64,000 nt of DNA, taken from NCBI GenBank assembly GCA_045645645.1, contig JAZRJE010000017.1:3707-67706 (forward strand). The letters are read 5' to 3'. The translations under genes and the position numbers were made by a program. The notes below the pieces were generated by a model that was given only the letters and a program-made list of their open reading frames with translations, searched no databases and was not told where the DNA came from. Positions 1,620 through 63,582 of the stretch are shown here, in pieces (within the stretch, counting starts at the first letter, position 1; every line of letters begins with the position of its first letter). The DNA comes from Candidatus Enterousia sp. GTDB lineage: Bacteria > Pseudomonadota > Alphaproteobacteria > Rs-D84.

Positions 1620-3892
1620 GAATGAAGTATAGAAATAGTGTTTTATTTGCGTCTTTGTTATCGTTGGTTTCTCCTGTCTATGGTGCAACAATATCACGTA
1701 TTGATGTTTCTGGTAATCAGCGCATGGATGCAGAATCAGTTCGTATTTTAGCAGATGTCAATGTTGGAGATAATGTTGGAACACATCGTGCGAATGAAAT
1801 TGCAAAAAAACTACAGACATCTGGATATTTTTCCAAGATAAATGTACACGTGTCAGGAAATGTCTTGAAAATAGACGTCAGCGAGGCACCTATAATCAAT
1901 ATGGTGACAGTTGAAGGCAATGATGAAATATCTACAGATGATTTAAAAAAAGAAATAAAAACCAAAGAACGTGCCTCGTATGATGAGTCTATTATTGGTG
2001 CAGATGTTCAGCGCATGCTGACAATATATCAGCGACGTGGTTTCTTTGGTACAAAAATAGAACCTAAAAAAATCGAATTAGATGAAAATCGCGTCAATGT
2101 CGTTTATGAAGTAGTCGAAGGGCATCCAACATGGATTACAGACATAAGATTTGAAGGAAATAAAAAATTTAGTGATCGCACTTTGCGGGGTGAAATCTTG
2201 TCACGCGAACACGCATGGTGGCGCTTTATGACGCAGTTTGATACATTTGATGAAGACAGAATACAATATGATGCGCAAATGCTGCGTCAGTTTTATCTGC
2301 GTAATGGTTACGTTGATTTCGCAGTATCAGAAACAAATGGTGTTTTTACACCAGACCGACAGTATTATTCTGTCACATTCAATGTTAATGAAGGGCCAAA
2401 GTATAAAATTGGAAAATTGACTATTGATAATCCATTTCAAGATATCCCAGATGATGTATTAAATGAAACAATTGTTATGAAATCTGGTGATACATATAAC
2501 GTTGATGAAGTTGAAGAAACACTGATAAATATGCGCAGTCGGATTGCAGATTATGGTTACGCATTTATTAATATTGAGCCAATACCACAGAAAAACACAG
2601 ATGACAAAACAATCGATTTAAAATTCCAAATTCAAAAAACAAATCGCATATATTTAAATTCGATAAATATATTGGGAAATGTTCGTACGTTTGATTCTGT
2701 TATTGAACAGTTGATGCCAATGCGTGCGGGTGATCCGTTTTCATTACAGACAATCGAAGAAGCGCGTCAAAAGTTGATGCGTACACGTTATTTTAAAAAT
2801 GTTCAGATGGTTCCCACACGTGTTGCTGGTGAAAACATGATGAATCTGGATGTGCGTGTTGAAGAACAGCCTACTGGTGAATTATCGGGTGGTTTTGGTT
2901 GGTCAAACATCAATGGTTTTATGGTTGATGCTGGGATTACCGAAAACAACTTTATGGGGCGTGGTCAGGTTGTTCAAATTCGTGCATCGCTGGCAGAATA
3001 TCAGAAACAAGCCTTATTTAGTTTTACTGAACCTTACTTGTTTGGACGTCAATTATCTGGTGGTTTTGATGTTTCGTACACGATGTATGATTATTCATCG
3101 CTTGGTGGATTTGGGTATGATCGCGATTCTCTGATGTTGGCGGGGCGTATGGGGTGGCGATTGACTGATCACTGGACACAGTCTGTACGCTTATCTGCAT
3201 CGTTTGACCAGAACTATGATATCCAAGCCGAAGATGGCTGGCAAGATGCGACCTTGTTTACGTTGGGTACCAGTCTGCGTTATCATAATTTGGATACAAA
3301 TTTTGAACAGAATACTCACACAGGGGTTGTTGCGAATTTGGGTCTGGCATATACTGGTTTTGGTGGCACAGAAACGTTTATGCGATACAGTGGTGACATT
3401 ATTGGTATGGTAAAGTTCTGGAATGATAGATGGCAGTTGCGTTCATCATTGGATTTCGGTTACATTCAGCCACTGGATGATAATTATGTTTCTCGTGTTT
3501 ATCGTTATTTCTTGGGTGGGGAATCATTGCGTGGCTTTGATGTTGCGGGTGTTGGTTCACGAAATTGGTTTTATAGCACATATGCGCTGGGTGGCTTGTG
3601 GAAGATTAATGGGTCAACTCAACTGAATTTTCCAATATTTATTCCTGACGAATACCAGGTTAAGGGTTTTGTGTTTGCAGACTATGGCATGTTGGGGAAA
3701 CCGCCAAAGAAGGAATATACTTTTGCAGGTCGTCCAAATCACATTGATGACAACATTCGCACATCGGTTGGTGTTGGTATTTACTGGAACACCCCAATGG
3801 GGCCAATGAATTTCAGCTGGGGCTGGCCGTTAAAGATGACTGAATATGATCGGGAACAAAGATTCTTGCTGTCATTTGAAACCCAGTTTTAG
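1610..3892 (+). CDS. bamA: outer membrane protein assembly factor BamA (Omp85)
   Basis: 760 aa with signal peptide, POTRA-like repeats and a C-terminal beta-barrel ending in an aromatic residue (ETQF); immediately follows rseP. Confidence 0.9.
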   Translation: MELRMKYRNSVLFASLLSLVSPVYGATISRIDVSGNQRMDAESVRILADVNVGDNVGTHRANEIAKKLQTSGYFSKINVHVSGNVLKIDVSEAPIINMVTVEGNDEISTDDLKKEIKTKERASYDESIIGADVQRMLTIYQRRGFFGTKIEPKKIELDENRVNVVYEVVEGHPTWITDIRFEGNKKFSDRTLRGEILSREHAWWRFMTQFDTFDEDRIQYDAQMLRQFYLRNGYVDFAVSETNGVFTPDRQYYSVTFNVNEGPKYKIGKLTIDNPFQDIPDDVLNETIVMKSGDTYNVDEVEETLINMRSRIADYGYAFINIEPIPQKNTDDKTIDLKFQIQKTNRIYLNSINILGNVRTFDSVIEQLMPMRAGDPFSLQTIEEARQKLMRTRYFKNVQMVPTRVAGENMMNLDVRVEEQPTGELSGGFGWSNINGFMVDAGITENNFMGRGQVVQIRASLAEYQKQALFSFTEPYLFGRQLSGGFDVSYTMYDYSSLGGFGYDRDSLMLAGRMGWRLTDHWTQSVRLSASFDQNYDIQAEDGWQDATLFTLGTSLRYHNLDTNFEQNTHTGVVANLGLAYTGFGGTETFMRYSGDIIGMVKFWNDRWQLRSSLDFGYIQPLDDNYVSRVYRYFLGGESLRGFDVAGVGSRNWFYSTYALGGLWKINGSTQLNFPIFIPDEYQVKGFVFADYGMLGKPPKKEYTFAGRPNHIDDNIRTSVGVGIYWNTPMGPMNFSWGWPLKMTEYDREQRFLLSFETQF

Positions 3893-9455: not shown

Positions 9456-10496
9456 ATGCTAACTACATCGGATTTTGATTTTGAATTACCAACCGAATTA
9501 ATTGCGTCGCGTCCATTGGCACAGCGTGATGCGTCGCGCATGTTGGTTGTTGGGAACGGTGGCGCAGTTTCTGACAAACATGTCCGCGATTTCCTGGATA
9601 TTTTACGTCCGGGCGATGTTGTTGTCTTTAACAATTCGCGTGTTATACCGGCGCGCTTTATGGCTGACGGTAAACATGAAATCACATTACATACCGCTGT
9701 TGATGAGCGAACCTGGTGGGGAATGTGCAAAAAATTCAATAAAATACCAGATGGTACAATATTGACACTGGACAATGGTGCGCAGATACGCGTTTTGGCA
9801 CACGATGACGACAGTGGTCTGAAATTAGAATTTTTATGTGAAAATGTTTTTGAAACCCTGGACGCAGTTGGCAAAATGCCGCTGCCACCATACATGAAGC
9901 GTGACGCCCAGGATACAGATCGTGAACGTTATCAAACGGTATATTCGTCCCCATTGGGGTCGATGGCGGCGCCGACGGCGGGGTTGCACTTTACAAATGA
10001 ATTATTGGATGAGATTCGTGAGCGTGGCGCCCAGATTGTAAACGTCACATTGCATGTTGGGGCAGGAACATGGTTGCCCGTTAAAACCGAAGATTTATCG
10101 ATGCACAAAATGCACAGCGAATGGTGTTGTATCACCGAAGAACAAGCAGACATAATAAATAACGCAAAACGTGTAATTGCCGTTGGAACAACGTCAATGC
10201 GAACACTGGAAAGTGCGGCAATGCACAACGGTGAATCTGGTAAATACAAGCGTGTTAGTCCGTTTTGTCAAAATACAAATATTTTTATCACACCAGGATA
10301 TAAATTCAAGGCAGTTGATGTATTACTGACTAATTTTCACCTGCCGAAATCAACACTGTTTATGTTGGTGTCTGCATTTTCTGGGCTGGACGAAATGAAG
10401 TGTGCATACAAACATGCGATTGATGAAAGATACAGATTTTTCAGCTATGGTGATTGTTGTTTGTTGTTTAAGAAGGGGACAACCGATGAAATATAA
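9456..10496 (+). CDS. queA: S-adenosylmethionine:tRNA ribosyltransferase-isomerase
   Basis: N-terminal DFDFELPTELIASRPLAQRDASRMLVV is the classic QueA start; length 346 aa. Confidence 0.9.
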   Translation: MLTTSDFDFELPTELIASRPLAQRDASRMLVVGNGGAVSDKHVRDFLDILRPGDVVVFNNSRVIPARFMADGKHEITLHTAVDERTWWGMCKKFNKIPDGTILTLDNGAQIRVLAHDDDSGLKLEFLCENVFETLDAVGKMPLPPYMKRDAQDTDRERYQTVYSSPLGSMAAPTAGLHFTNELLDEIRERGAQIVNVTLHVGAGTWLPVKTEDLSMHKMHSEWCCITEEQADIINNAKRVIAVGTTSMRTLESAAMHNGESGKYKRVSPFCQNTNIFITPGYKFKAVDVLLTNFHLPKSTLFMLVSAFSGLDEMKCAYKHAIDERYRFFSYGDCCLLFKKGTTDEI

Positions 10497-20141: not shown

Positions 20142-22571
20142 TTATCGATATATGTAATTGTTTAATGTGTCTGCAATGATTGTGCCCTTTTCATTGTCGA
20201 AGCCCTTTTGTGCATCTTTCTTTTTTATAGGTTTCCAATTATACATTTTACCCATATGTGTATTGCGACCTGTTTCCAGCATGTCCCAATAAGCCATCAG
20301 CTCCTTGTATTTATCTTTGTGGTCATCGTCCCAGCTGTTTAAGACATTTGTTCGTTTATTAATACGGTCAGATAAAAAGTCGACAGTTTCTTTTGCGTCA
20401 GTCCATGTGTTCAGTCGTATTTCTGTGCGATGGTTTTCTTGTTGTTTTTGCACCAGTGCTTGTTGGCGTGCTTGAATAATTCCATCGATGTTATTGCTCA
20501 GGTTTTGTAATCTGCCCAGATAGTGCTGGCTAGATGTAATTTGGTTGCCTATATCATTTAGTTGCTGTTGTATACTTGGTAAAGCATTGTTTTGTAAATA
20601 TTGTAATTCGCTTTGGTATACAGGTATGTTTGCGGGCAATGTAGCTGGATTTGCGATTTCAGACGTTAGCCAGCGAATCCGCAATTGTATTTGGTTTTCT
20701 TGGTTCCTTAGGCCAGCCTGGTGGCGCATCATGTCCGTAATTTCCTGGTTGACTTCTCTAATTCTCGCTGGCAATTCAGCTTTTTTTTGAACTGCTTTAT
20801 CATAAGCTTGTTGCAGTTGTTGTTCAATGTTTTGATTGTTTGCATAGTCTTGTCTATGCAGGTCGATATTTGCTTCACTTATACCACCATGTGGGAAACG
20901 CGGATTAACCCTCATACTATTCAGTGTGGCTTGGTTGGCAGTAAGTATGCCTTGGTCTGCCTGTTGCTGCTGCTGCAAATCCTGGTATGCGTCCAGTGTC
21001 TGCTGTTCCCATGCGGTTTGGGCGGTTGTCATGCGACCACGTCTGCCCTTAAATTTGCTGCCCGACAGGTTTATTGCATTGCCCAGGGCTGTAATTCCAT
21101 ATCCAATTCCCATAAAGGCTGTTTTTATACTTTTGTCCAGGGCGGTTGTGACAAATTTGACGCCATCGGTTTTATTAAATGATAAACCTTTGTCAGAAAA
21201 TATCGTCATATCTGTCTTTTTAAAGGTGTCCATGATTTTGCTGGTTGTATATCCGTATTTGACAATAGATAAGACTTCCAATGCGGTTTTTGCCTCATCA
21301 ATTTTTCCATCACGAACAGCGATTAATATCATTTCTTCAATCAATACACGCAGCTGCCGACCATTACGTAATGCACCAGCAAAAGCCTTTGGCATTGTGT
21401 TTTCAAGTTCTTTCATTGTTTTTGTAAACCAATCAAAGTGTTTGCGCGCTGATGCGGATTTAATTTTTTCTTTGATTGTGTTGGCTGAATCTACAATCTT
21501 AGCCAAGCCATCTGTTGGTTTAATTTCTGCTTTATCAATTGCGCCAACGATGTTTTTTGCCTGGGGGGTAAAGAACAATGTGTCGCCACGAAGTTTTGTA
21601 TATTTTTCCAGACATTCTGAATATGTTGTATCCCACCAGTCAGATATTTGTTCAGGTAATGATAATTCGTCTGTACGTTTTGGCGGAACGTAATCGTCTG
21701 TGCCTGATTCGCCATAAGTCATGCGACTTTTGGCTTCTGCTAATTTTGATGAAATCTTACTGTGGTCATTGCTAGAAAAAACATCAAAAATGTCTTTTGT
21801 GCTATAAATTTCTTTTAATAAATCAGAATAAACGTCTTTAAATGAATCTAGTTTGCCAAGATTAATAGTGTCGACTTCAAATTTGTCACTATCAACTATT
21901 ACAGAAAAATCTATACTTGGTGGTAAATTACGTAAGTTGGCTTTAAAGTTTGGGTCGTATGTAATTCCAGATGATATACGTTGTGCAACACTTTGTAGCT
22001 TGCTTAAAAACTTTGGGCTTGTGTTGTATTTCTTGGAATTGATACCGTCCAGCAAATCAGACCAAGAAAAATCATCTGTCAAAATACCAGTCAAACGATC
22101 CGCTATTTCAGGATTGTCGCGCAACAGTTGTCCCAGTGCGCGAATTTGAGTTTCTGCTTCCGGGGTCGCTGTCGGGTGACTAAACATTTTAGAAGAATCA
22201 CCAAAATATTTGGCAAGAAACTTATTTGCCTTATCGTTATATTTGAAACTTCCTTTATTGGATTCCATTGCACGAAACGTGTTGCGAAACGCCTTGAACA
22301 ACTTTTTCCATTCATCATCTGTTAATTCCCATGCGCCACCAACTTCTTCTGGGTCGGGTAATGATTTTCGTATAAAATTTCCTGCACCGTCTTTTACAAA
22401 GTTTCCAGCTGCGTCCTTTTCCAGCAGATTGTCTGCCCATTCTTTCATATGTCCACTGTAATCTTTGTCCTTTACATAAGAACAAAATTGGACGAATTGC
22501 TCAATTGGCATATTGCGGAAATGCAATCTTTTAAAATATTCCAGCAAAAAATCATCCATTTTTACAGCCAT
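20142..22571 (-). CDS. large hypothetical protein (809 aa) with a Gln-rich predicted coiled-coil C-terminal half
   Basis: Single long ORF; no signal peptide; QQQQQ and Q/N-rich heptad-like stretches between residues ~530 and ~720; no enzymatic motif recognised. Confidence 0.55.
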   Translation of the reverse strand: MAVKMDDFLLEYFKRLHFRNMPIEQFVQFCSYVKDKDYSGHMKEWADNLLEKDAAGNFVKDGAGNFIRKSLPDPEEVGGAWELTDDEWKKLFKAFRNTFRAMESNKGSFKYNDKANKFLAKYFGDSSKMFSHPTATPEAETQIRALGQLLRDNPEIADRLTGILTDDFSWSDLLDGINSKKYNTSPKFLSKLQSVAQRISSGITYDPNFKANLRNLPPSIDFSVIVDSDKFEVDTINLGKLDSFKDVYSDLLKEIYSTKDIFDVFSSNDHSKISSKLAEAKSRMTYGESGTDDYVPPKRTDELSLPEQISDWWDTTYSECLEKYTKLRGDTLFFTPQAKNIVGAIDKAEIKPTDGLAKIVDSANTIKEKIKSASARKHFDWFTKTMKELENTMPKAFAGALRNGRQLRVLIEEMILIAVRDGKIDEAKTALEVLSIVKYGYTTSKIMDTFKKTDMTIFSDKGLSFNKTDGVKFVTTALDKSIKTAFMGIGYGITALGNAINLSGSKFKGRRGRMTTAQTAWEQQTLDAYQDLQQQQQADQGILTANQATLNSMRVNPRFPHGGISEANIDLHRQDYANNQNIEQQLQQAYDKAVQKKAELPARIREVNQEITDMMRHQAGLRNQENQIQLRIRWLTSEIANPATLPANIPVYQSELQYLQNNALPSIQQQLNDIGNQITSSQHYLGRLQNLSNNIDGIIQARQQALVQKQQENHRTEIRLNTWTDAKETVDFLSDRINKRTNVLNSWDDDHKDKYKELMAYWDMLETGRNTHMGKMYNWKPIKKKDAQKGFDNEKGTIIADTLNNYIYR

Positions 22572-46120: not shown

Positions 46121-46207
46121 GCGGATATGGCGGAATTGGTAGACGCGCTAGTTTCAGGTACTAGTGGTGGCGACACCTTGGAAGTTCGAGTCTTCTTATC
46201 CGCACCA
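46121..46207 (+). tRNA. tRNA-Leu (anticodon CAG)
   Basis: GCGGATATGGCGGAATTGGTAGACGCGCTAGTTTCAGGTACTAG...TTCGAGTCTTCTTATCCGCACCA; long variable arm. Confidence 0.85.
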
Positions 46208-46212
46208 TATTT

Positions 46213-46288
46213 GGGGTTGTAGCTCAGCTGATAGAGCGCTACGTTCGCATCGTAGAGGTCGTGGGTTTGAGTCCCATCAGCTCCACCA
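46213..46288 (+). tRNA. tRNA-Ala (anticodon read as CGC)
   Basis: GGGGTTGTAGCTCAGCTGATAGAGCGCTACGTTCGCATCGTAGAGGTCGTGGGTTTGAGTCCCATCAGCTCCACCA; G3:U70 Ala identity pair is present. Confidence 0.75.
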
Positions 46289-46308
46289 GTTTTTGCAGAA
46301 AAGTCTTC

Positions 46309-46395
46309 GGGGATATGGCGGAATGGTAGACGCTGAGGACTTAAAATCCTTTGGTCATTGCGACCGTGTGGGTTCAAGTCCCACTATCCCCACCA
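46309..46395 (+). tRNA. tRNA-Leu (anticodon TAA)
   Basis: GGGGATATGGCGGAATGGTAGACGCTGAGGACTTAAAATCCTT...GGTTCAAGTCCCACTATCCCCACCA. Confidence 0.85.
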
Positions 46396-46451
46396 CTATT
46401 TATCTTTGTGGTTTATGGTGTGTCCAATTCGCCCGTTGGCGTTTTTTTTTA

Positions 46452-46528
46452 GGATGAATAGTTCAGTTGGTTAGAGCATCACGTTCACATCGTGGGGGTC
46501 GCTGGTTCGAGTCCAGTTTCATCCACCA
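46452..46528 (+). tRNA. tRNA-Val (anticodon CAC)
   Basis: GGATGAATAGTTCAGTTGGTTAGAGCATCACGTTCACATCGTGGGGGTCGCTGGTTCGAGTCCAGTTTCATCCACCA. Confidence 0.85.
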
Positions 46529-56311: not shown

Positions 56312-56936
56312 ATTTGAATTAGTTAGCATGCCACCACAGAATACAAATTCTGTGGTGGTTTTTAATGATGACAAATGTATTGTTTTTGATCCGTGGGGAC
56401 GGCTTGATGATTGGATACAATATTTTTCAGATCGATCTTTGAAGCCTGTTGCAGTGTATGTAACACATGGGCACTCAGATCATATATCCGCCGCTGCAGC
56501 GATTGCATCGTATTTTGATATAGATTGGTACATGTCGCATAAAGATTTAGATTTGATTGATTGGGGAAATAGTCTGTTGGAATATTTTGGGTTGCCTAAA
56601 TTATCCACAAACGACAAGGCACCAGTTAATTTGGCATCTGGTGAATATACAGTGTTGTCTGACACAAAAATGCGTGTTTTAAAATTGCCAGGGCACACAC
56701 GTGGTGGAATGGGTTTTTATTTCCCAGAAGATGGTGTGTTTATTGTTGGGGATACATTGTTTCAGAATGCATATGGTCGCACAGATCTTCCTGGTGGTGA
56801 TGAAAAGATATTATTTGAATCTATTGCGCAGATTTACGATATGCATCTGCCAGATACCACAGTTGTTTTGCATGGTCATGGAATGCACACAACTATTGGG
56901 TGGTTGCGTCAAAATAATCCGTTTTTTAAATCATAA
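56292..56936 (+). CDS. MBL-fold metallo-hydrolase (glyoxalase II-like)
   Basis: HxHxDH motif (THGHSDH) and downstream GH/DT metal ligands; 214 aa. Confidence 0.7.
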   Translation: MKNPNSKFELVSMPPQNTNSVVVFNDDKCIVFDPWGRLDDWIQYFSDRSLKPVAVYVTHGHSDHISAAAAIASYFDIDWYMSHKDLDLIDWGNSLLEYFGLPKLSTNDKAPVNLASGEYTVLSDTKMRVLKLPGHTRGGMGFYFPEDGVFIVGDTLFQNAYGRTDLPGGDEKILFESIAQIYDMHLPDTTVVLHGHGMHTTIGWLRQNNPFFKS

Positions 56937-56971
56937 TTGCGAATTGAAAAAATATATGTCATGATTGTTTC

Positions 56972-58246
56972 ATGTCATTAGTTGCACCAATTTTAAATGA
57001 AGTTCAGCTTTCAGCGTTTAATGCGATTGAGTATACTAATTCTAATATTCTAATTTTAGGTCAGGCAGGAACAGGTAAATCAACGTTTATAAACTATTTG
57101 AAAAGTGCAACAAAAAAAAGAATTGTATGTGCATGTCCAACAGCAGTATCTGCATTAAATGTTGGGGGACAAACAATACACTCACTTTTTCAGATACAAC
57201 CACGTGATTTCATTATGCCAGAATTGTTAAAGCTAAAAGCGAAACCACGTAACATATTAAATGCGACAGATGTTTTGGTTATTGATGAAATTTCTATGGT
57301 GGCGCCAGATTTGTTAGATGCAATTGATATCTTGGCACGCATGGCTCGTCACAACAATGCGCCCTTTGGTGGAATTCAAATTGTTGCTATTGGCGACCTG
57401 TTTCAGTTACCTCCAGTTATAACACGTGATGCAATGGGATACTACCAAGAAGCATATGGTTATTCAAATGCCTATTTTTTTGACAGCAATGTTTATAAGC
57501 GTTTAAATATTGTTCGTTTTGATTTTGATACGGTATATCGCCAAAAAGATGACGAATTACTTAATAATCTTACACGATTACGCAATCGAGATATTGGTGC
57601 GCTTGACTTTTTTAATAGCTGTAAGATACAAGATGAAGAACGTCGTTCAAATGCAGTTTTAATAACCCCATTTCGTGATACAGCCGAACGGATAAACGCA
57701 TCAAGGCTAGCACAGATAAATGCGCCAGAAATTACATACACAGGTATTTTGACTGGGACTTTTTCTGAGCGAGATGTTCCTGCACCTATGAATTTGACTT
57801 TAAAGATTGGTGCGTTGGTAGTATTTGTAAAAAATGGTGATAAATGGCACAATGGATCAATGGGAATAATTCGTATGATGACTGCTCGTGACATAACGGT
57901 ACAGCTGCTATCAGACAGTCGTGAAATAGTTGTTGTAAAACCCGAAAAGTGGGAAAAGATTGAATATAGTCGCGATGAAAATGACAGAATTGTTGAAAAC
58001 GAAGTCGGTGGGTATAAACAGTTTCCACTAAATTTAGGATATGCCATGACCATACACAAGGCTCAGGGTAAAACATTAGATGCGGTTGTTGTTGATATGT
58101 CACGTGGTGCATTTGCACATGGGCAAACATATGTTGCGCTATCACGCACGCGTGGTGCCACAGATATTCATGTGACATCAGCATTGCGACCACGTGATGT
58201 TATTTTTGATAATCGTGTACTAGGGTTTGTGGACTCTGATAAGTAA
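56972..58246 (+). CDS. SF1B helicase of the RecD/Pif1/Dda family
   Basis: Walker A (LGQAGTGKST), Walker B (VLVIDEISMV), GDLFQLPPV, and C-terminal HKAQGKTLD...YVALSRTR motifs; 424 aa. Confidence 0.7.
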   Translation: MSLVAPILNEVQLSAFNAIEYTNSNILILGQAGTGKSTFINYLKSATKKRIVCACPTAVSALNVGGQTIHSLFQIQPRDFIMPELLKLKAKPRNILNATDVLVIDEISMVAPDLLDAIDILARMARHNNAPFGGIQIVAIGDLFQLPPVITRDAMGYYQEAYGYSNAYFFDSNVYKRLNIVRFDFDTVYRQKDDELLNNLTRLRNRDIGALDFFNSCKIQDEERRSNAVLITPFRDTAERINASRLAQINAPEITYTGILTGTFSERDVPAPMNLTLKIGALVVFVKNGDKWHNGSMGIIRMMTARDITVQLLSDSREIVVVKPEKWEKIEYSRDENDRIVENEVGGYKQFPLNLGYAMTIHKAQGKTLDAVVVDMSRGAFAHGQTYVALSRTRGATDIHVTSALRPRDVIFDNRVLGFVDSDK

Positions 58247-59261
58247 TGCGCATAAAATCAATTGCGTTATTTGTTAGTTCTGAAACTTTAACCCCACGAC
58301 CAGAAATAAGATTGGTTGGAATAGGGGCATGCAATATTGCCGCTGATGCAGATTTTACAATAGCGTTTCGTTCCGCCGCAAATAAAATTTTGCCATATTC
58401 ATTTAGTTTATAGTTATTCTTGTCGCCTAAATCGAATGTAGAATGTTCGTCTGTTTCTGCGTCTGGTATTTCATCTCGGACATTTGGTACAACCATCGTA
58501 TGTTTGGATTTAAAAAACATTGGTTTAATACGACCTGCATTTTCTAATAATACATCATCAAACATTCCGTTGTTGCGTAATACTGCATCATGTATGTACA
58601 TGAATGAGACAGTTGTCGTTTTCAATTGGTCTATTGGTCCCAATGGTTCGTGATTGATTACGATAATATTTTTTAAGAATAAGTCGATTTCACTTTGTGT
58701 ATAGCCTGCGGTTTTCATGTTTTGTTGCAGCTTGTCCTGCAACATCAACATTGTTGATGCACCCTGACAGTGTGTAAAAAATATCGCGTTTCTTGCATGC
58801 TTTATAGCGGTATTAATTTCGTATCTGGTTCCATATTGATTTACAATTCTGGGTTTGAATATTTTATCAAACAGAATCTGAATAAATATCGGCTGTGGTT
58901 CAAGCTTATCAACAGCTGATATTTGTGCATTACGTTTTTCATTATCTGCTTCTAATTCAATAATACGTTTTCCTGCTTTACGAAACAGTTGGGCCCGATC
59001 GTGTGATGGGATTCTCGATCCAAAAGCATAAAACACAGAATAAAAATCAAAATTAGTTATATTGTTTTTTTCCAGTATTGTACGAATATATCGACCATAA
59101 AATCGTGCTTTGAATTCGTCAATTGTTTCTTCGCCACCAAGTATAAAAAAGGCAGGTTTTCCCACAGGAATAACAGATGGATTACGTATAAATTCATTAT
59201 CATTTTGTCCCTTTGGAACAATCTTTATAATCTGTGCGCTGCTACGTTGAAATGGGTGCAT
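58200..59261 (-). CDS. hypothetical protein (353 aa)
   Basis: Long ORF 1 bp downstream of rimI on the same strand; no recognised motif (the HCQGAS segment is not a convincing GxSxG). Confidence 0.45.
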   Translation of the reverse strand: MHPFQRSSAQIIKIVPKGQNDNEFIRNPSVIPVGKPAFFILGGEETIDEFKARFYGRYIRTILEKNNITNFDFYSVFYAFGSRIPSHDRAQLFRKAGKRIIELEADNEKRNAQISAVDKLEPQPIFIQILFDKIFKPRIVNQYGTRYEINTAIKHARNAIFFTHCQGASTMLMLQDKLQQNMKTAGYTQSEIDLFLKNIIVINHEPLGPIDQLKTTTVSFMYIHDAVLRNNGMFDDVLLENAGRIKPMFFKSKHTMVVPNVRDEIPDAETDEHSTFDLGDKNNYKLNEYGKILFAAERNAIVKSASAAILHAPIPTNLISGRGVKVSELTNNAIDFMRITYQSPQTLVHDYQK

Positions 59262-59262
59262 T

Positions 59263-59649
59263 CTATATGTCCTTTTTCATGGTTATGGCGTCTTCTCCAT
59301 CATAGTACTTTGGACGAATTCCGATTTCCTTATATCCGTTGTTTTTGTACAAAGCGCGTGCAGGTGCGTTCTTTTCGACCACTTCCAAGAATATATGTTT
59401 TATGCCGCGTTTTTTCAAGTCGCCTTCTGCAATTCCTAGCATTGCTGCCGCTATACCAGTGCGTCGTGCTTCAGGTGCGACACCAATAGTAATTATTTCT
59501 GCTTCGTCACATGTTGCACGATATACAATAAAGCCATTTTGGCTAGCAATAATTTCACACCCCGAATTTTGCAGGTCCTTAAAATCATTTGCAGACCATG
59601 GTTTGTGTGGAAAGCATTTTGCATGCAAAACTGCCAAATTATCTAACAT
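59263..59649 (-). CDS. rimI: GNAT acetyltransferase, RimI-like (ribosomal-protein-alanine acetyltransferase)
   Basis: 128 aa; acetyl-CoA binding segment (GVAPEARRTGIAAAML); in the tsaB neighbourhood. Confidence 0.75.
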   Translation of the reverse strand: MLDNLAVLHAKCFPHKPWSANDFKDLQNSGCEIIASQNGFIVYRATCDEAEIITIGVAPEARRTGIAAAMLGIAEGDLKKRGIKHIFLEVVEKNAPARALYKNNGYKEIGIRPKYYDGEDAITMKKDI

Positions 59650-59992
59650 TGTGTGTGTCCAAATATTTATTCTTCATTTTGTTATAGATTTTTTCTGCGA
59701 ATTTAGAATTAAGCTGTATCTCTTGATATGGAATAGGTGATGCAGGTCTGTTATCTTCCATGTACAAGCGATATGATACGCGGGGCAGGGTTGATTCGTT
59801 ATATGAACAAGTCGCACATATAAAGAATTTTTTGTCGCGTACAGAATATGATTTTTCTGAACACCTAGTATCACGTGCGCTTTCTAAAATTATCCATTCG
59901 TCATGTCTATGATGAACATCATAATTTTTCACTATATCAAAAATTAAACATTGATATTCTGGATAAAAGATTCGTTGAAACAAATTTGCCAT
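59639..59992 (-). CDS. hypothetical protein, tandem paralog A (117 aa) of a three-member family
   Basis: Starts MANLFQRIFYPEYQ; conserved N-terminus MANIFQKIF.P.YQW.ILDM..KYD and C-terminal FA.K.YNKM.NKY shared with B and C; overlaps the rimI start by 11 nt. Confidence 0.5.
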   Translation of the reverse strand: MANLFQRIFYPEYQCLIFDIVKNYDVHHRHDEWIILESARDTRCSEKSYSVRDKKFFICATCSYNESTLPRVSYRLYMEDNRPASPIPYQEIQLNSKFAEKIYNKMKNKYLDTHNVR

Positions 59993-60005
59993 CGTTCTTG
60001 TCCGT

Positions 60006-60353
60006 CTACCACGAGAATTGTTTTGCAGCAAGATTTTTATCAAAAAAACGTCTACGCATTATATGAAATAAATGACATGCAAAGTGTGTGTTGCGTTCTT
60101 CCCAAGATGGATTACGTATATCTCCTTCTTTGCGTTTACGATTAAGATATAGATTATATTTAGCAAAAGGTGCTGAATTTTTATCAAAGCGCCTTTCTGC
60201 ACGAATGTCGGTATCATCCGTTGTTATAGAATATGTATAAACTAAAGAATCTACAGATTCATGTCTATCTTCTTTGATGTCATACTTTTTTACCATATCA
60301 AGTATTTTCCATTGATATGTTGGTAAAAAGATTTTCTGAAAAATATTTGCCAT
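60006..60353 (-). CDS. hypothetical protein, tandem paralog B (115 aa)
   Basis: Starts MANIFQKIFLPTYQWKILDMVKKYDIKE; more divergent C-terminus. Confidence 0.5.
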   Translation of the reverse strand: MANIFQKIFLPTYQWKILDMVKKYDIKEDRHESVDSLVYTYSITTDDTDIRAERRFDKNSAPFAKYNLYLNRKRKEGDIRNPSWEERNTHFACHLFHIMRRRFFDKNLAAKQFSW

Positions 60354-60367
60354 TGTTTACCTTTTTG

Positions 60368-60742
60368 TTACCAAGTAAATTCGCGCTCACGCATGTATTT
60401 GTTTAGCATTTTATTATATGCTTTATATGCAAATTCTGTATCTGTTTCAGTATGTACACGCTCACGCTTGTCGCCGTCCTTACGTTCGCGTCTTACGTAC
60501 AGATCAACAGATATTGGGTGCGCTAATGTTGAATCGTAATTACGTGTAGCGATAATAGAAGCCTCCTCGGCATTTATGCTGTATTGTCTTGTAGAACCTT
60601 CGCCAAACACAGGATGACCACATGGTGTAATATGATCCGTATTAAAAGTACGTACTTCTTCTTTTATATCATATTTGTCTATCATATCTAATATGCGCCA
60701 TTGATATTCTGGTCTGAATATTTTTTGAAAAATATTTGCCAT
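60368..60742 (-). CDS. hypothetical protein, tandem paralog C (124 aa)
   Basis: Internal start MANIFQKIFRPEYQWRILDMIDKYDIKE one nucleotide after the tsaB stop; ends FAYKAYNKMLNKYMREREFTW. Confidence 0.5.
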   Translation of the reverse strand: MANIFQKIFRPEYQWRILDMIDKYDIKEEVRTFNTDHITPCGHPVFGEGSTRQYSINAEEASIIATRNYDSTLAHPISVDLYVRRERKDGDKRERVHTETDTEFAYKAYNKMLNKYMREREFTW

Positions 60743-60743
60743 T

Positions 60744-61286
60744 TTATTTGCCTTTTGGTTGTTCTGCATAGCTGGGACGTAGATACATTGGTACCACAGG
60801 ATCTGTTGTCCCAAATGTTAGCCTGTCTTTAACGATGTTTACTCCCAACCTCAAATCAAAAGGTTTGTGTCCAACGGTGCGTGGCCATTCCATTTGTTTT
60901 GTCTCTAATTCTTCTATTTCCATTGTACATGGGTTTAATCCAGGTGCGGCAACAAAAAAATCTCCACGACCTGAATCTATTGCTACAAAAGCATCAGGTG
61001 TTGCGGCCAAGTATAAATCAAATAAACTTATACCAATTAGCGGGATTTTTAATCCCATTGCTAATCCTTTTGCATACGCTATCCCCAGACGTATTCCTGT
61101 AAAGCTGCCAGGACCAACAATTACACCAGCAGCAGTTAAATCAGACCATTTTGCTTCACATTCTGCAATAAACTTTTCACATTCTGTTGGCAGTGCAATC
61201 GATTGTTTTTCAACATCAACAGATTTGTATTTGTCGTCCAATACAAATTCCAGATTTGCCCCTGATGTGTTAATAATTAAAATCAT
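60744..61286 (-). CDS. tsaB: tRNA threonylcarbamoyladenosine biosynthesis protein TsaB (YeaZ)
   Basis: MILIINTSG...GPGSFTGIRLGIAYAKGLAMGLKIPLIG matches the YeaZ/Kae1-like inactive homolog; 180 aa. Confidence 0.8.
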   Translation of the reverse strand: MILIINTSGANLEFVLDDKYKSVDVEKQSIALPTECEKFIAECEAKWSDLTAAGVIVGPGSFTGIRLGIAYAKGLAMGLKIPLIGISLFDLYLAATPDAFVAIDSGRGDFFVAAPGLNPCTMEIEELETKQMEWPRTVGHKPFDLRLGVNIVKDRLTFGTTDPVVPMYLRPSYAEQPKGK

Positions 61287-61654
61287 TTTTGTTTAGCCTT
61301 TAACTCGTTTAGCAAATCCCAAAAATAATGCGCAATCGTACCGTAGCATATTTTTGGTTCAAATGTTTCCTTGTTTATAACTGTCGCAAAGTATCTGGGT
61401 TGACAGAACAATGCGGGGATGCCAGGGAACTTTTCTTCCATTACACCTATGTCGTATTTGTCGTTTTTTCCAATAATTAGTTGTTTCTGCATTCCCTTTG
61501 TTCTTGAAACTAGGCCGTCAACTGTTTGTATTTTTAATTGTTTTTCTCTTACATGTGCTGCAACAGTGTTAAATAAATCAATTTGCTCTTGTCCATCACC
61601 AAAGACAACGGTGTCCACATCTTTGCCATTTATGGTGATTGTAGTCTTTTTCAT
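61283..61654 (-). CDS. small protein that looks like a degenerate remnant of the Lon protease domain
   Basis: [31 protein letters not shown] aligns with the Lon P-domain [44 protein letters not shown] sits where PKDGPSAGIAM is expected (catalytic Ser replaced). The ORF ends before the catalytic Lys region. Confidence 0.45.
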   Translation of the reverse strand: [123 protein letters not shown]

Positions 61655-63408
61655 ACACGTACCCCAAATCCAATCTTTTTAGAAAAACCAGCTGTTTGAC
61701 GTACAGATAGCAGCTCATCAATTTTTTCAGTTGTAAAGTCTGTTCTTACATCTTCGGCGTTGTTTTCTAATAACGCCCGACGCAGAATAGCGACAAATTG
61801 ACGTTGTAATTGGCGTACGCCTTGTTCAGATGTATAGTTTTGAATAATATGTCGAATTGCATCATCTGAAATTATTATATTATCCATGTTCCAGCCAGTA
61901 TCACGTGCTGCGCGTTCAATTAAATGTTCGCGTGCTATGCGTACTTTTTCATCAATTGAATATCCAGGAATTTCAATTATTTCCATACGATCTTTCAGTG
62001 CATTGGATATATTTAAGCTATTTGCAGTTGCAATGAATAAAATGTTAGACAGGTCAAAATCAACTTCCAAATAGTGATCGCGGAACGATTTATTTTGTTC
62101 TGGGTCTAATATTTCCAACAGAGCCGATTCTGGATCGCCTCTCCAATCTCGTCCCATTTTGTCAATTTCATCCAGAACGATTACAGGATTATTTGACTTA
62201 CAACGTTTCAGCGCATCCATAATACGTCCTGTTTGTGCCCCAATATAGGTTTTGCGATGTCCGCGGAAATGTGCTTCATCTGATACGCCACCTAACGATA
62301 TTCGCTGATATTTTCGTCCCAGTGCGGTTGCGATTGACTTTCCAAGAGATGTTTTACCGACACCTGGTGCCCCAACAAAACATAAGATAGAACCTTGGTT
62401 TGACTTTGTCTTTTTCATTACAGCAATATGTTCCAGTATTCGTTCTTTGACACCACGCATACCAGAATGTTCTGAATCCAGAACTTTTCGTGCCACATCT
62501 AAATCAATCTGCGCTTTGTCTGATTTGTTCCATGGCATAGCCAATAATTCGTCCAGATAGGTTTTTAATAACCCGCCTTCATTCGACATTGGGGACATAG
62601 ACTTCATGCGTTTCCATTCACTTAAAGCTTTTTCTTTTGCTTCGCGTGGCAGGTGTGATTTCTCAATACGCTTACGAATATTTTCACTGTCTGCTTCTAT
62701 ATCATCTTCACCCATTTCACGCTGAATAGCGCGCATTTTTTCTTGAAGTATCGCTTCCCTGCGTCCTTTTTCCATTTGTTGGTGAATGCGCTTATTAATA
62801 GATTCTTCGATTTTAGCTGTTTCTGCCATCAGGTTAACTTGTTCCATCAAAATAATCAGCTTTTCTCGCCATGAAGTAGCGCTTAAAATTTTTAGTGCAG
62901 GTTCCGTATCTATTTCCAGTGTCTGAACCACATAGTCGATAAATGCGGGCAGGGGATAATTCTGGACCACGTTACGAAGTTTTTCTATCTTAAATTTACG
63001 TGTGCCAGCTAAGATTTGCATGTTTTCTGCGATTTTGTCACGCAATGCGATTGTTTGTTCGTGTTTTTCGTCATCCTGAATGGCAATTGATTCAACATTT
63101 CCGACAAACAGTCCGTCTGCGATTAAAACATCAGTTATTTTTACAGCATCTGTTGTGCGCACAATGGCGTGCACTGCACCATCTGGTGTTCGTAATACTT
63201 GTACGATATCACCGATTGTTCCAACGTCATAAATATCATTTGCAGACACAGGATAGTTCCATGTTCGTTGCGCAACTAATACCAAGCGTTGTCCCATCTT
63301 AGCTGCAGATTCAATACATGCAATTGATGTTTTGTTATCTATGTACACTGGTACCGTCAGGCCTGGGTGTACTACAAAATCCCTAAAAGGTAGAATATAA
63401 TGTTTCAT
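61651..63408 (-). CDS. lon: Lon protease N-terminal plus AAA+ module, lacking the C-terminal S16 protease domain
   Basis: LON substrate-binding N-domain and AAA+ motifs (GAPGVGKTSLGKS, VIVLDEIDKM, RGDPESALLEILDPEQN). The ORF ends at 585 aa, exactly where the protease domain should begin; tsaB starts 365 nt later. Confidence 0.8.
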   Translation of the reverse strand: MKHYILPFRDFVVHPGLTVPVYIDNKTSIACIESAAKMGQRLVLVAQRTWNYPVSANDIYDVGTIGDIVQVLRTPDGAVHAIVRTTDAVKITDVLIADGLFVGNVESIAIQDDEKHEQTIALRDKIAENMQILAGTRKFKIEKLRNVVQNYPLPAFIDYVVQTLEIDTEPALKILSATSWREKLIILMEQVNLMAETAKIEESINKRIHQQMEKGRREAILQEKMRAIQREMGEDDIEADSENIRKRIEKSHLPREAKEKALSEWKRMKSMSPMSNEGGLLKTYLDELLAMPWNKSDKAQIDLDVARKVLDSEHSGMRGVKERILEHIAVMKKTKSNQGSILCFVGAPGVGKTSLGKSIATALGRKYQRISLGGVSDEAHFRGHRKTYIGAQTGRIMDALKRCKSNNPVIVLDEIDKMGRDWRGDPESALLEILDPEQNKSFRDHYLEVDFDLSNILFIATANSLNISNALKDRMEIIEIPGYSIDEKVRIAREHLIERAARDTGWNMDNIIISDDAIRHIIQNYTSEQGVRQLQRQFVAILRRALLENNAEDVRTDFTTEKIDELLSVRQTAGFSKKIGFGVRV

Positions 63409-63582
63409 GGTAATGATAAATATAATACTTTTTATACATAATTCAAGAACTATGAAATCTTAAAAATAGTATTTGCATAGTTATTTTTATTCCCCTTGCG
63501 TTAGGGCGATAAAACTGTCACAATAGTATCAGGTTCTTACGGGACTTACAGAACCATAACAAGCATAAGAAAGGATAGGATT

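Follow-up and report, generated by a model that had tools for sequence, protein, structure and literature searches.

A family of small orphan proteins encoded between tsaB and rimI in reduced-genome gut Alphaproteobacteria

We describe three consecutive minus-strand genes, designated C, B, and A, that lie between tsaB and rimI in a stretch of 64,000 nucleotides from Candidatus Enterousia sp. (GenBank assembly GCA_045645645.1, contig JAZRJE010000017.1), referred to here as the window. The three are functional protein-coding genes with soluble products. They appear to constitute a new protein family that matches no known family, fold, or system; what we put forward is a family and not a new mechanism. 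The family is confined to reduced-genome Alphaproteobacteria of the gut (Candidatus Enterousia/order Rs-D84). The tandem array is old, its makeup resulting from differential loss and occasional gain, and the window does not represent a fresh triplication. We are highly confident in this descriptive account of a real, orphan, clade-fixed family array within one operon. Genomes below 1 Mb rarely retain dispensable genes, yet in this clade an unclassified small protein is kept, duplicated, and diversified at precisely one junction, that of tsaB and rimI. Candidatus Enterousia, a member of the uncultured order Rs-D84, has genomes of 0.75–1.0 Mb that encode neither the tricarboxylic acid cycle nor respiration, and it probably depends on partner organisms (PMC12306168).

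Gene C starts at position 60742, one nucleotide past the tsaB stop codon (60744–60746). Fourteen nucleotides separate C from B and 13 separate B from A, and the last 11 nt of gene A overlap the start of rimI (59649) (Table 1). Pairwise BLASTP comparisons gave 38% identity between C and B (E 1e-24), 33% between C and A (E 3e-16), and 32% between B and A (E 3e-13), which places their paralogy far beyond chance. The three proteins can be aligned over their full lengths, sharing the N-terminal motif MANIFQKIF.P.YQW.ILD and a C-terminal block, FA.K.YNKM.NKY. At the DNA level, the 5′ ends of the three genes form a three-copy direct repeat of 87 nt with 69–79% identity. A search with the family profile found no fourth copy elsewhere in the 64-kb window. 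The public protein of gene C (P0001) comprises 133 residues because it begins at an upstream ATG (60769) inside tsaB. The family alignment and the stop codons just upstream of the starts of the internal copies instead point to the MANIF ATG at 60742 as the probable start, so that the public annotation of the tsaB-proximal copy should be corrected from 133 to 124 residues.

The C-terminal helix of B has diverged and carries a four-residue insertion, but its hydrophobic F-A...M pattern is retained. We rejected a frameshift as the origin of this C-terminus, as the other two frames, read by eye, run into stop codons and contain no YNKM-like motif. Judged by its sequence, B is diverged rather than broken; the B protein is identical on two contigs, L022 and L023.

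Between species, where synonymous sites are saturated, the ratio of nonsynonymous to synonymous substitution rates (dN/dS) was 0.07–0.20 for C, 0.18 for A where computable, and 0.12–0.32 for the remote subfamily X introduced below. The dN values of the family range from 0.20 to 0.37, compared with 0.07–0.13 for tsaB and 0.05–0.17 for the Lon-like gene that opens the operon. The family is under purifying selection, yet it evolves 2–4 times faster than its neighbours.

We modeled C and A with AlphaFold2 using family alignments. The model of C reached a mean predicted local distance difference test score (pLDDT) of 84.7 and a predicted template-modeling score (pTM) of 0.75, and the model of A reached 89.7 and 0.79, respectively. 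Both share one topology, in which a poorly ordered tail precedes a helix at approximately residues 11–23, five antiparallel strands, and a C-terminal helix of 17–19 residues; the tail has low pLDDT and forms a short helix at residues 4–9 in A. The paralog E-values of 1e-13 to 1e-24, the low dN/dS, and the confident models of identical topology together establish C, B, and A as real genes. The family proteins are hydrophilic and mostly basic (isoelectric points 6.4–10.1), with neither a signal peptide nor a transmembrane segment. Met1, Ala2, an Asp in helix 1, and the Phe and Met of the last helix are invariant or near-invariant among 32 members. Conservation is confined to the two helices and the N-terminal tail, and the sheet with its loops varies most. 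No active-site-like constellation of polar residues is conserved across the 32-member alignment, which speaks for binding and against catalysis. Most likely, the members are non-enzymatic binding proteins in which one part stays constant and a surface diversifies.

Searches against Pfam, NCBIfam, PHROGs, and PADLOC returned no match for C or B and only noise for A (E 0.02–0.06, 14 bits). When the 32 members were scanned individually, 12 different single-member noise matches appeared and none led to assignment to a curated family. A sequence search of the PDB found no relative, and Foldseek searches against the PDB and BFVD gave nothing significant (E ≥ 0.02, TM-score ≤ 0.44). The p32/gC1qR proteins, CapZ subunits, and StARkin/START-like proteins, which recur as weak Foldseek matches, have the same general succession of N-terminal helix, antiparallel sheet, and long C-terminal helix, but all of these matches are insignificant (E ≥ 0.1, TM-score 0.2–0.43) and provide no evidence of homology or shared function. 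The predicted fold is probably new. A profile search of all 1.84 billion representative proteins yielded 25 matches at E ≤ 0.001. They are 49–141 residues long, save one 640-residue protein (P0050) that aligned on short stretches only, and every match with readable genomic context lies between tsaB and rimI.

Two further identities were rejected. The family has no viral relatives in IMG/VR and no PHROG match, and it does not form a compositional island, as its GC content of 0.33–0.37 passes into the 0.35–0.41 of its neighbours with no sharp boundary; together with the clade-wide synteny, these results speak against phage or mobile-element cargo. The usual small neighbour of tsaB is tsaE, which encodes the ATPase of N6-threonylcarbamoyladenosine (t6A) synthesis, with a P-loop Walker A motif and an SPTF motif. 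Identity with TsaE was ruled out, since alignments and regular-expression searches found neither motif in any member and PF02367 did not match. The original prediction for this locus had described three minus-strand genes of 117, 115, and 124 codons with the spacings and the tsaB and rimI contacts given above, and the open reading frame (ORF) list and the sequence agree with it. The shared terminal motifs and the diverged C-terminus of B, which it had also reported, are visible in the alignment, and the flanking genes that it named as tsaB and rimI pass the cut-offs of TIGR03725 and TIGR01575. Its view of the three as paralogs of an unrecognised family, lacking signal peptides and transmembrane segments and sharing one operon with tsaB and rimI, likewise stands, and the homology to a known family that it had named as an outcome counting against it was not found.

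To place the array in its evolutionary context, we fetched 26 loci by exact-protein look-ups and a scan of a genome collection, and annotated them with the window proteins and the family profile. The closest loci were found in metagenome assemblies from animal and human guts and are labelled "Alphaproteobacteria bacterium" or, for two loci, "Candidatus Enterousia sp." All loci that span the region carry the Lon-like gene, tsaB, the family gene or genes, and rimI, with a PIF1-like helicase gene opposite. The tsaB-rimI slot holds one to four family genes in each related locus fetched, down to a RimI identity of 75%. A RimI search for an outgroup with an empty junction gave, in its best 120 matches, proteins that are all at least 75% identical. 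No empty junction was seen in the loci examined, and the most distant of the RimI-matched ones, L026, still holds one copy.

The copies fall into subfamilies, and a distance tree separates clades A, C, D, and X, each represented by orthologs from several species. Single copies occur in L013, L017, L019/L020, and L026. Loci with two copies combine X and C (L001, L014), C and D (L006/L008), or X and A (L010). Three copies are found in the window (C, B, and A), in L024 (X, C-like, and A), and in L018, and four copies (X, D, C, and A) in both L015 and L016. Orthologs of the window's A gene are 53–64% identical to it and reside in L010, L015, L016, and L017; those of C are 60–70% identical and occur in L001, L006, L008, and L013–L016. 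Because orthologs share 53–70% identity and A and C only about 33%, the A and C subfamilies diverged well before the species themselves. In the tree, B lies next to the C clade along with P0043 of L024, and it was found only in the species of the window (contigs L022 and L023). X-type proteins are remote members that lack the N-terminal motif (hhalign probability 85%, E 6e-6, 107 columns). The single 108-residue copy of L026 also lacks the motif and matches the family profile weakly (13.7 bits, p ~5e-6), at the same position. The preferred order of subfamilies is X, D, C or C-like, then A; the window has lost X and D and carries an extra C-like copy, B.

This comparison revises the original prediction in two respects. 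It had called the array a tandem triplication, a term that does not suit A and C as old subfamilies with orthologs in other species, only B being confined to one species. It had also pictured the array as inserted into a conserved gene pair, which is misleading since the slot is occupied in every related locus fetched. Comparing this interval among relatives, as it had proposed in order to see whether zero, one, or three copies are ancestral, gave the range of one to four copies, and the three-copy state is not a recent one. Tandem arrays of lineage-specific paralogs are, as such, an ordinary and common feature of genomes. What the comparison adds is the definition of a new family with clear subfamilies, a well-defined genomic signature, and probably a new fold.

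Several distant subfamilies (P0054, P0058–P0064, and L018 at 2368–3186) contain Cys-rich inserted loops (e.g., CxxxCxxxxC) and a C-terminal HGCPC(G/E)R motif. These features, which are absent from the copies of the window, suggest possible metal binding.

In nine of the 11 architectures, including those of the most distant loci, L018, L019, and L026, the same overlap of 11 nt (ATGYTARATRA) joins the last family gene to rimI. This overlap argues for a conserved translational coupling of the last family gene to rimI. In L001 (6676–7077), L013, and L014, rimI apparently starts at a GTG or TTG inside the 3′ end of the C-type gene, with an overlap of 17–26 nt. Such non-ATG starts occur where the last family gene is of the C-type; elsewhere the ATG and the 11-nt overlap are conserved.

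The direct repeats at the 5′ ends offer a route for changes in copy number. On a single short contig, L023 (ena:ERZ27316845:k141_861216), tsaB is joined directly to B and exactly one repeat unit, C, is missing. Its tsaB is about 99% identical to that of the window and its B is identical. The junction falls within ATGGCAAATATTTTTCA, a 17-nt exact match common to the starts of C and B. As the usual minimum assembly k-mer exceeds 17 nt, a real deletion or duplication is likelier than an assembly artefact. The species is thus probably polymorphic for two and three copies, as judged from one short contig, and copy number still shifts through recombination between the conserved 5′ ends.

Table 1. 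Features of the tsaB-rimI operon in the window
Feature	Coordinates	Strand	Details
Sigma-70-like site, candidate operon promoter upstream of the Lon-like gene	63419..63446	-	consensus match only
Lon homolog, first operon gene	61651..63408	-	585 aa; substrate-binding N-terminal, AAA+, and lid domains; no S16 protease domain
Orphan gene between the Lon-like gene and tsaB	61283..61654	-	123 aa; 4-nt overlaps at both ends
tsaB, t6A complex dimerisation subunit	60744..61286	-	180 aa; TIGR03725 79.3 bits (cut-off 69.3); PF00814; PDB TsaB matches
Paralog C	60368-60742	-	124 aa; C-type subfamily; from ORF list and sequence
5′-end direct repeat, copy in C	60657..60743		87 nt; L023 deletion breakpoint within ATGGCAAATATTTTTCA, shared by C and B
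Paralog B	60006-60353	-	115 aa; sister of the C-type clade; from ORF list and sequence
5′-end direct repeat, copy in B	60268..60354		87 nt; recombination substrate with the C copy
Paralog A	59639-59992	-	117 aa; A-type subfamily, rimI-proximal; from ORF list and sequence
5′-end direct repeat, copy in A	59907..59993		87 nt
rimI, S18-alanine N-acetyltransferase	59263..59649	-	128 aa; TIGR01575 89.1 bits (cut-off 86.4)
Orphan gene, last in operon	58200..59261	-	353 aa; start 1 nt past the rimI stop

The window is chromosomal, with 39% GC, and carries genes for GroEL, FtsH, TilS, and tRNAs. On the minus strand, the operon reads Lon-like gene, 123-residue orphan, tsaB, C, B, A, rimI, and 353-residue orphan, and every junction from 63408 down to 58200 is either an overlap or a gap of at most 14 nt. 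A PIF1-like helicase gene (56972–58246) converges on the end of the operon and overlaps the 3′ end of the last gene by 47 nt. The best PDB matches of the window RimI are the RimI proteins of E. coli and Salmonella (5isv, 2cnm). Genes for tsaE, bS18, and EF-Tu were looked for and none was found within the 64-kb window or the fetched loci.

The Lon-like protein aligns with TIGR00763 at model positions 2–567 of 795 only, scoring below the cut-off, and its AAA+ domain displays Walker A (GAPGVGKTS) and Walker B (DEIDK) motifs. All relatives carry the gene at 585–587 residues with 77–92% identity, so that this truncation is both ancient and maintained. The protease-less Lon may act as an unfoldase or chaperone. 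The 123-residue orphan shows 24–67% identity among relatives, is absent from L019/L020, and gave no family match; it was rejected as a member of the C/B/A family (hhalign probability 0.6%). The 353-residue orphan has no match in Pfam or NCBIfam and occurs among relatives as two divergent types (28–33% and ~72% identity). Both types stand in tandem in L010/L011 (344 and 354 residues), and neither is found in L019 or L026. The operon of L019 is minimal, with four genes including the Lon-like gene and without either of these orphans.

The constant co-expression implied by a shared operon suggests that the family proteins work together with either TsaB or RimI. Clustering of rimI with tsaB, tsaD, and tsaE, seen in approximately a fifth of bacterial genomes, is an acknowledged puzzle, and in vitro, RimI from M. 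tuberculosis acetylates peptides taken from the N-termini of proteins that its neighbouring genes encode (PMC4926160). The feature of the family that points to RimI is the N-terminal tail. Its consensus is M-A-N-(I/F)-(F/L)-Q-(K/R)-(I/L)-F, with Ala2 in 19 and Asn3 in all of the 20 motif-bearing copies. The underlying codons vary synonymously (GCA/GCT/GCG, AAT/AAC, CAA/CAG, and AAA/AAG/CGA/AGA) and the peptide is kept, from which we conclude that selection acts on the tail peptide and not on the DNA. An RNA element or recent gene conversion as the sole cause of the 5′-end conservation was rejected on the same ground.

The N-termini are of the kind acetylated by RimI/NatA-type enzymes: besides the near-universal Ala2, X-type copies carry Thr or Ser at this position, and the N-terminus has low pLDDT, the copy of L026 (MQ) being the exception. 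In the mature tail, Phe or Leu occupies position 4 and Lys or Arg position 6. The classical RimI substrate, the bS18 N-terminus ARYFRR, likewise has a mature Ala, with an aromatic fourth and a basic sixth residue, as in ANIFQK of the family. In the RimI complex with this peptide, Arg2 contacts Glu103 and Phe4 contacts Trp27, and EF-Tu is also acetylated by RimI in E. coli (PMC9079301). The window RimI retains the residues aligned to Trp27 and Glu103, and the family gene lies directly upstream of rimI and overlaps it. Neither bS18 nor EF-Tu (SKEKF...) is homologous to the family, and the tail agrees with ARYFRR at two of six positions.

Based on these features, we propose that removal of the initiator methionine would leave a mature Ala with a free α-amino group, and that the flexible tail Ala-Asn-(Ile/Phe)-(Phe/Leu)-Gln-(Lys/Arg)-(Ile/Leu)-Phe could enter the peptide groove of RimI. 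There it might be acetylated by RimI or, through its resemblance to the S18 N-terminus ARYFRRRKF, act as a peptide for docking or as a decoy, and the variable sheet might bind a second partner. This role as a RimI substrate, decoy, or adaptor acting through the tail is a guess, and an unlikely one. It is clearly unlikely that the family would be a dedicated RimI partner (substrate, decoy, or specificity adaptor) that docks through an S18-like tail and physically links RimI to TsaB/TsaD or to the protease-less Lon. Taken as a whole, the descriptive account combined with the RimI mechanism is the best explanation that we can offer, and a tentative one.

The concept of a non-catalytic, co-expressed protein that could steer or limit acetylation is shared with Naa15 and HYPK, the partners of eukaryotic N-terminal acetyltransferases. 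An analogy with such auxiliary partners has been raised for the neighbours of rimI (PMC4926160). The family has no sequence or fold similarity to Naa15 or HYPK, and the likeness is one of analogy only. We know of no bacterial RimI partner comparable to Naa15 or HYPK, and if the RimI-partner role were true, the family would provide the first bacterial accessory protein of an N-terminal acetyltransferase. A rimI-coupled protein with a conserved free Ala-tail would in any case be a concrete handle on the unexplained clustering of rimI with tsa genes.

Several points weigh against a RimI-directed tail. The tail is not universal, as X-type copies begin with MTKEF, MSQDF, or MTNAF, and the sole copy of L026 begins with MQENIK, would keep its Met, and does not have a NatA/RimI-type N-terminus. 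Because the X-type and L026 copies do without the tail, a single function common to the family cannot depend on it. The likeness to ARYFRR goes no further than Ala1 and Phe4. The tail could also be an amphipathic helix, as modeled for residues 4–9 of A, that packs on the protein or mediates oligomerisation. Finally, two more orphans lie at other junctions of the operon, which may be just a landing place for lineage-specific genes.

This last point leads to the alternative that survives best, namely that the family hitch-hikes in the operon and has a role unrelated to t6A or N-acetylation, for example in stress or in interactions with partner or host cells. Where a genome is small and its promoters are few, a constitutive housekeeping operon would be the easiest place from which to express new genes, and tandem copies would diversify a binding surface for changing external targets. 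The other two orphans evolve fast and the ~350-residue one is duplicated in L010, the family has a dN 2–4 times that of tsaB and the Lon-like gene, its copy number varies from one to four with polymorphism within a species, and Rs-D84 bacteria are thought to rely on partner organisms (PMC12306168), all of which fit this explanation. It sits less easily with hydrophilic proteins that have no signal peptide or transmembrane segment. The clade-wide position and the 11-nt coupling to rimI, which persist even where the other orphans are lacking (L019), exceed what random landing would lead one to expect. We regard hitch-hiking as possible, though somewhat unlikely.

We consider it improbable that the family is a partner of the t6A machinery, binding TsaB or TsaB-TsaD as an accessory or as a replacement of TsaE, with the paralogs tuning the complex. 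In all loci the family follows tsaB immediately on its 3′ side (1–16 nt), and the TsaB of the window is compact, which would suit such a partner; the family nevertheless has no P-loop, TsaE motif, or enzyme-like conserved residues, and it diverges below 20% identity, whereas the t6A enzymes are highly conserved.

The Lon-like gene provides a further conceivable partner, since no locus lacks it, not even L019 with its minimal operon of four genes. The family would then be an adaptor, regulator, or substrate of the protease-less Lon, and the tail a recognition tag for the Lon N-domain. Known Lon degrons are rich in aromatic and hydrophobic residues, as is the tail ANIFQKIF, and small Lon regulators with terminal degrons exist, e.g., LarA and HspQ. 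The family, however, never adjoins the Lon-like gene, and its X-type and L026-type members have no tail, so that a role with Lon seems quite improbable.

The pairing of a small gene with a downstream GNAT gene is also known from toxin-antitoxin systems such as TacA-TacT, AtaR-AtaT, and KacA-KacT, in which the upstream gene likewise overlaps the GNAT gene, and variable numbers of fast-diverging small tandem paralogs with a conserved framework are typical of poly-immunity arrays (e.g., SUKH). Antitoxins or immunity proteins of either kind are nonetheless very improbable here. The GNAT of the window scores above the rimI equivalog cut-off, and it shows the synteny with tsaB that is seen for rimI in many bacteria. 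An identity with DUF1778/ribbon-helix-helix antitoxins was ruled out, since no profile matched and the predicted fold is helix, five strands, and helix, and no other antitoxin or immunity family matched either. Neither a toxin gene nor a mobile element or compositional island lies nearby, and, unlike poly-immunity arrays, the family is fixed clade-wide in a conserved housekeeping operon. That the copies are spurious or decaying ORFs, duplication debris heading for loss, is scarcely credible. The altered C-terminus of B, its confinement to one species, and the absence of C from one contig would fit decay; against it, dN/dS lies well under 1, all frames are intact, orthologs are conserved across species, the predicted folds are confident, the B protein is identical on independent contigs, and coding density is high in a genome of ~0.9 Mb.

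Outside the operon, a giant gene (1491 to >2500 residues, in some cases with Flg_new repeats) separates the PIF1-like helicase gene from a metallo-beta-lactamase-fold gene in relatives, located at 9520–13995 in L001 and from 9293 onward in L006. In the window, the helicase and metallo-beta-lactamase-fold genes are adjacent (56936–56972) and the giant gene is absent. Another large orphan of the window is an 809-residue ORF on the minus strand (20142–22571) without a Pfam match at E ≤ 1e-5, and four tRNA genes are clustered within about 400 nt on the plus strand (46121–46525).

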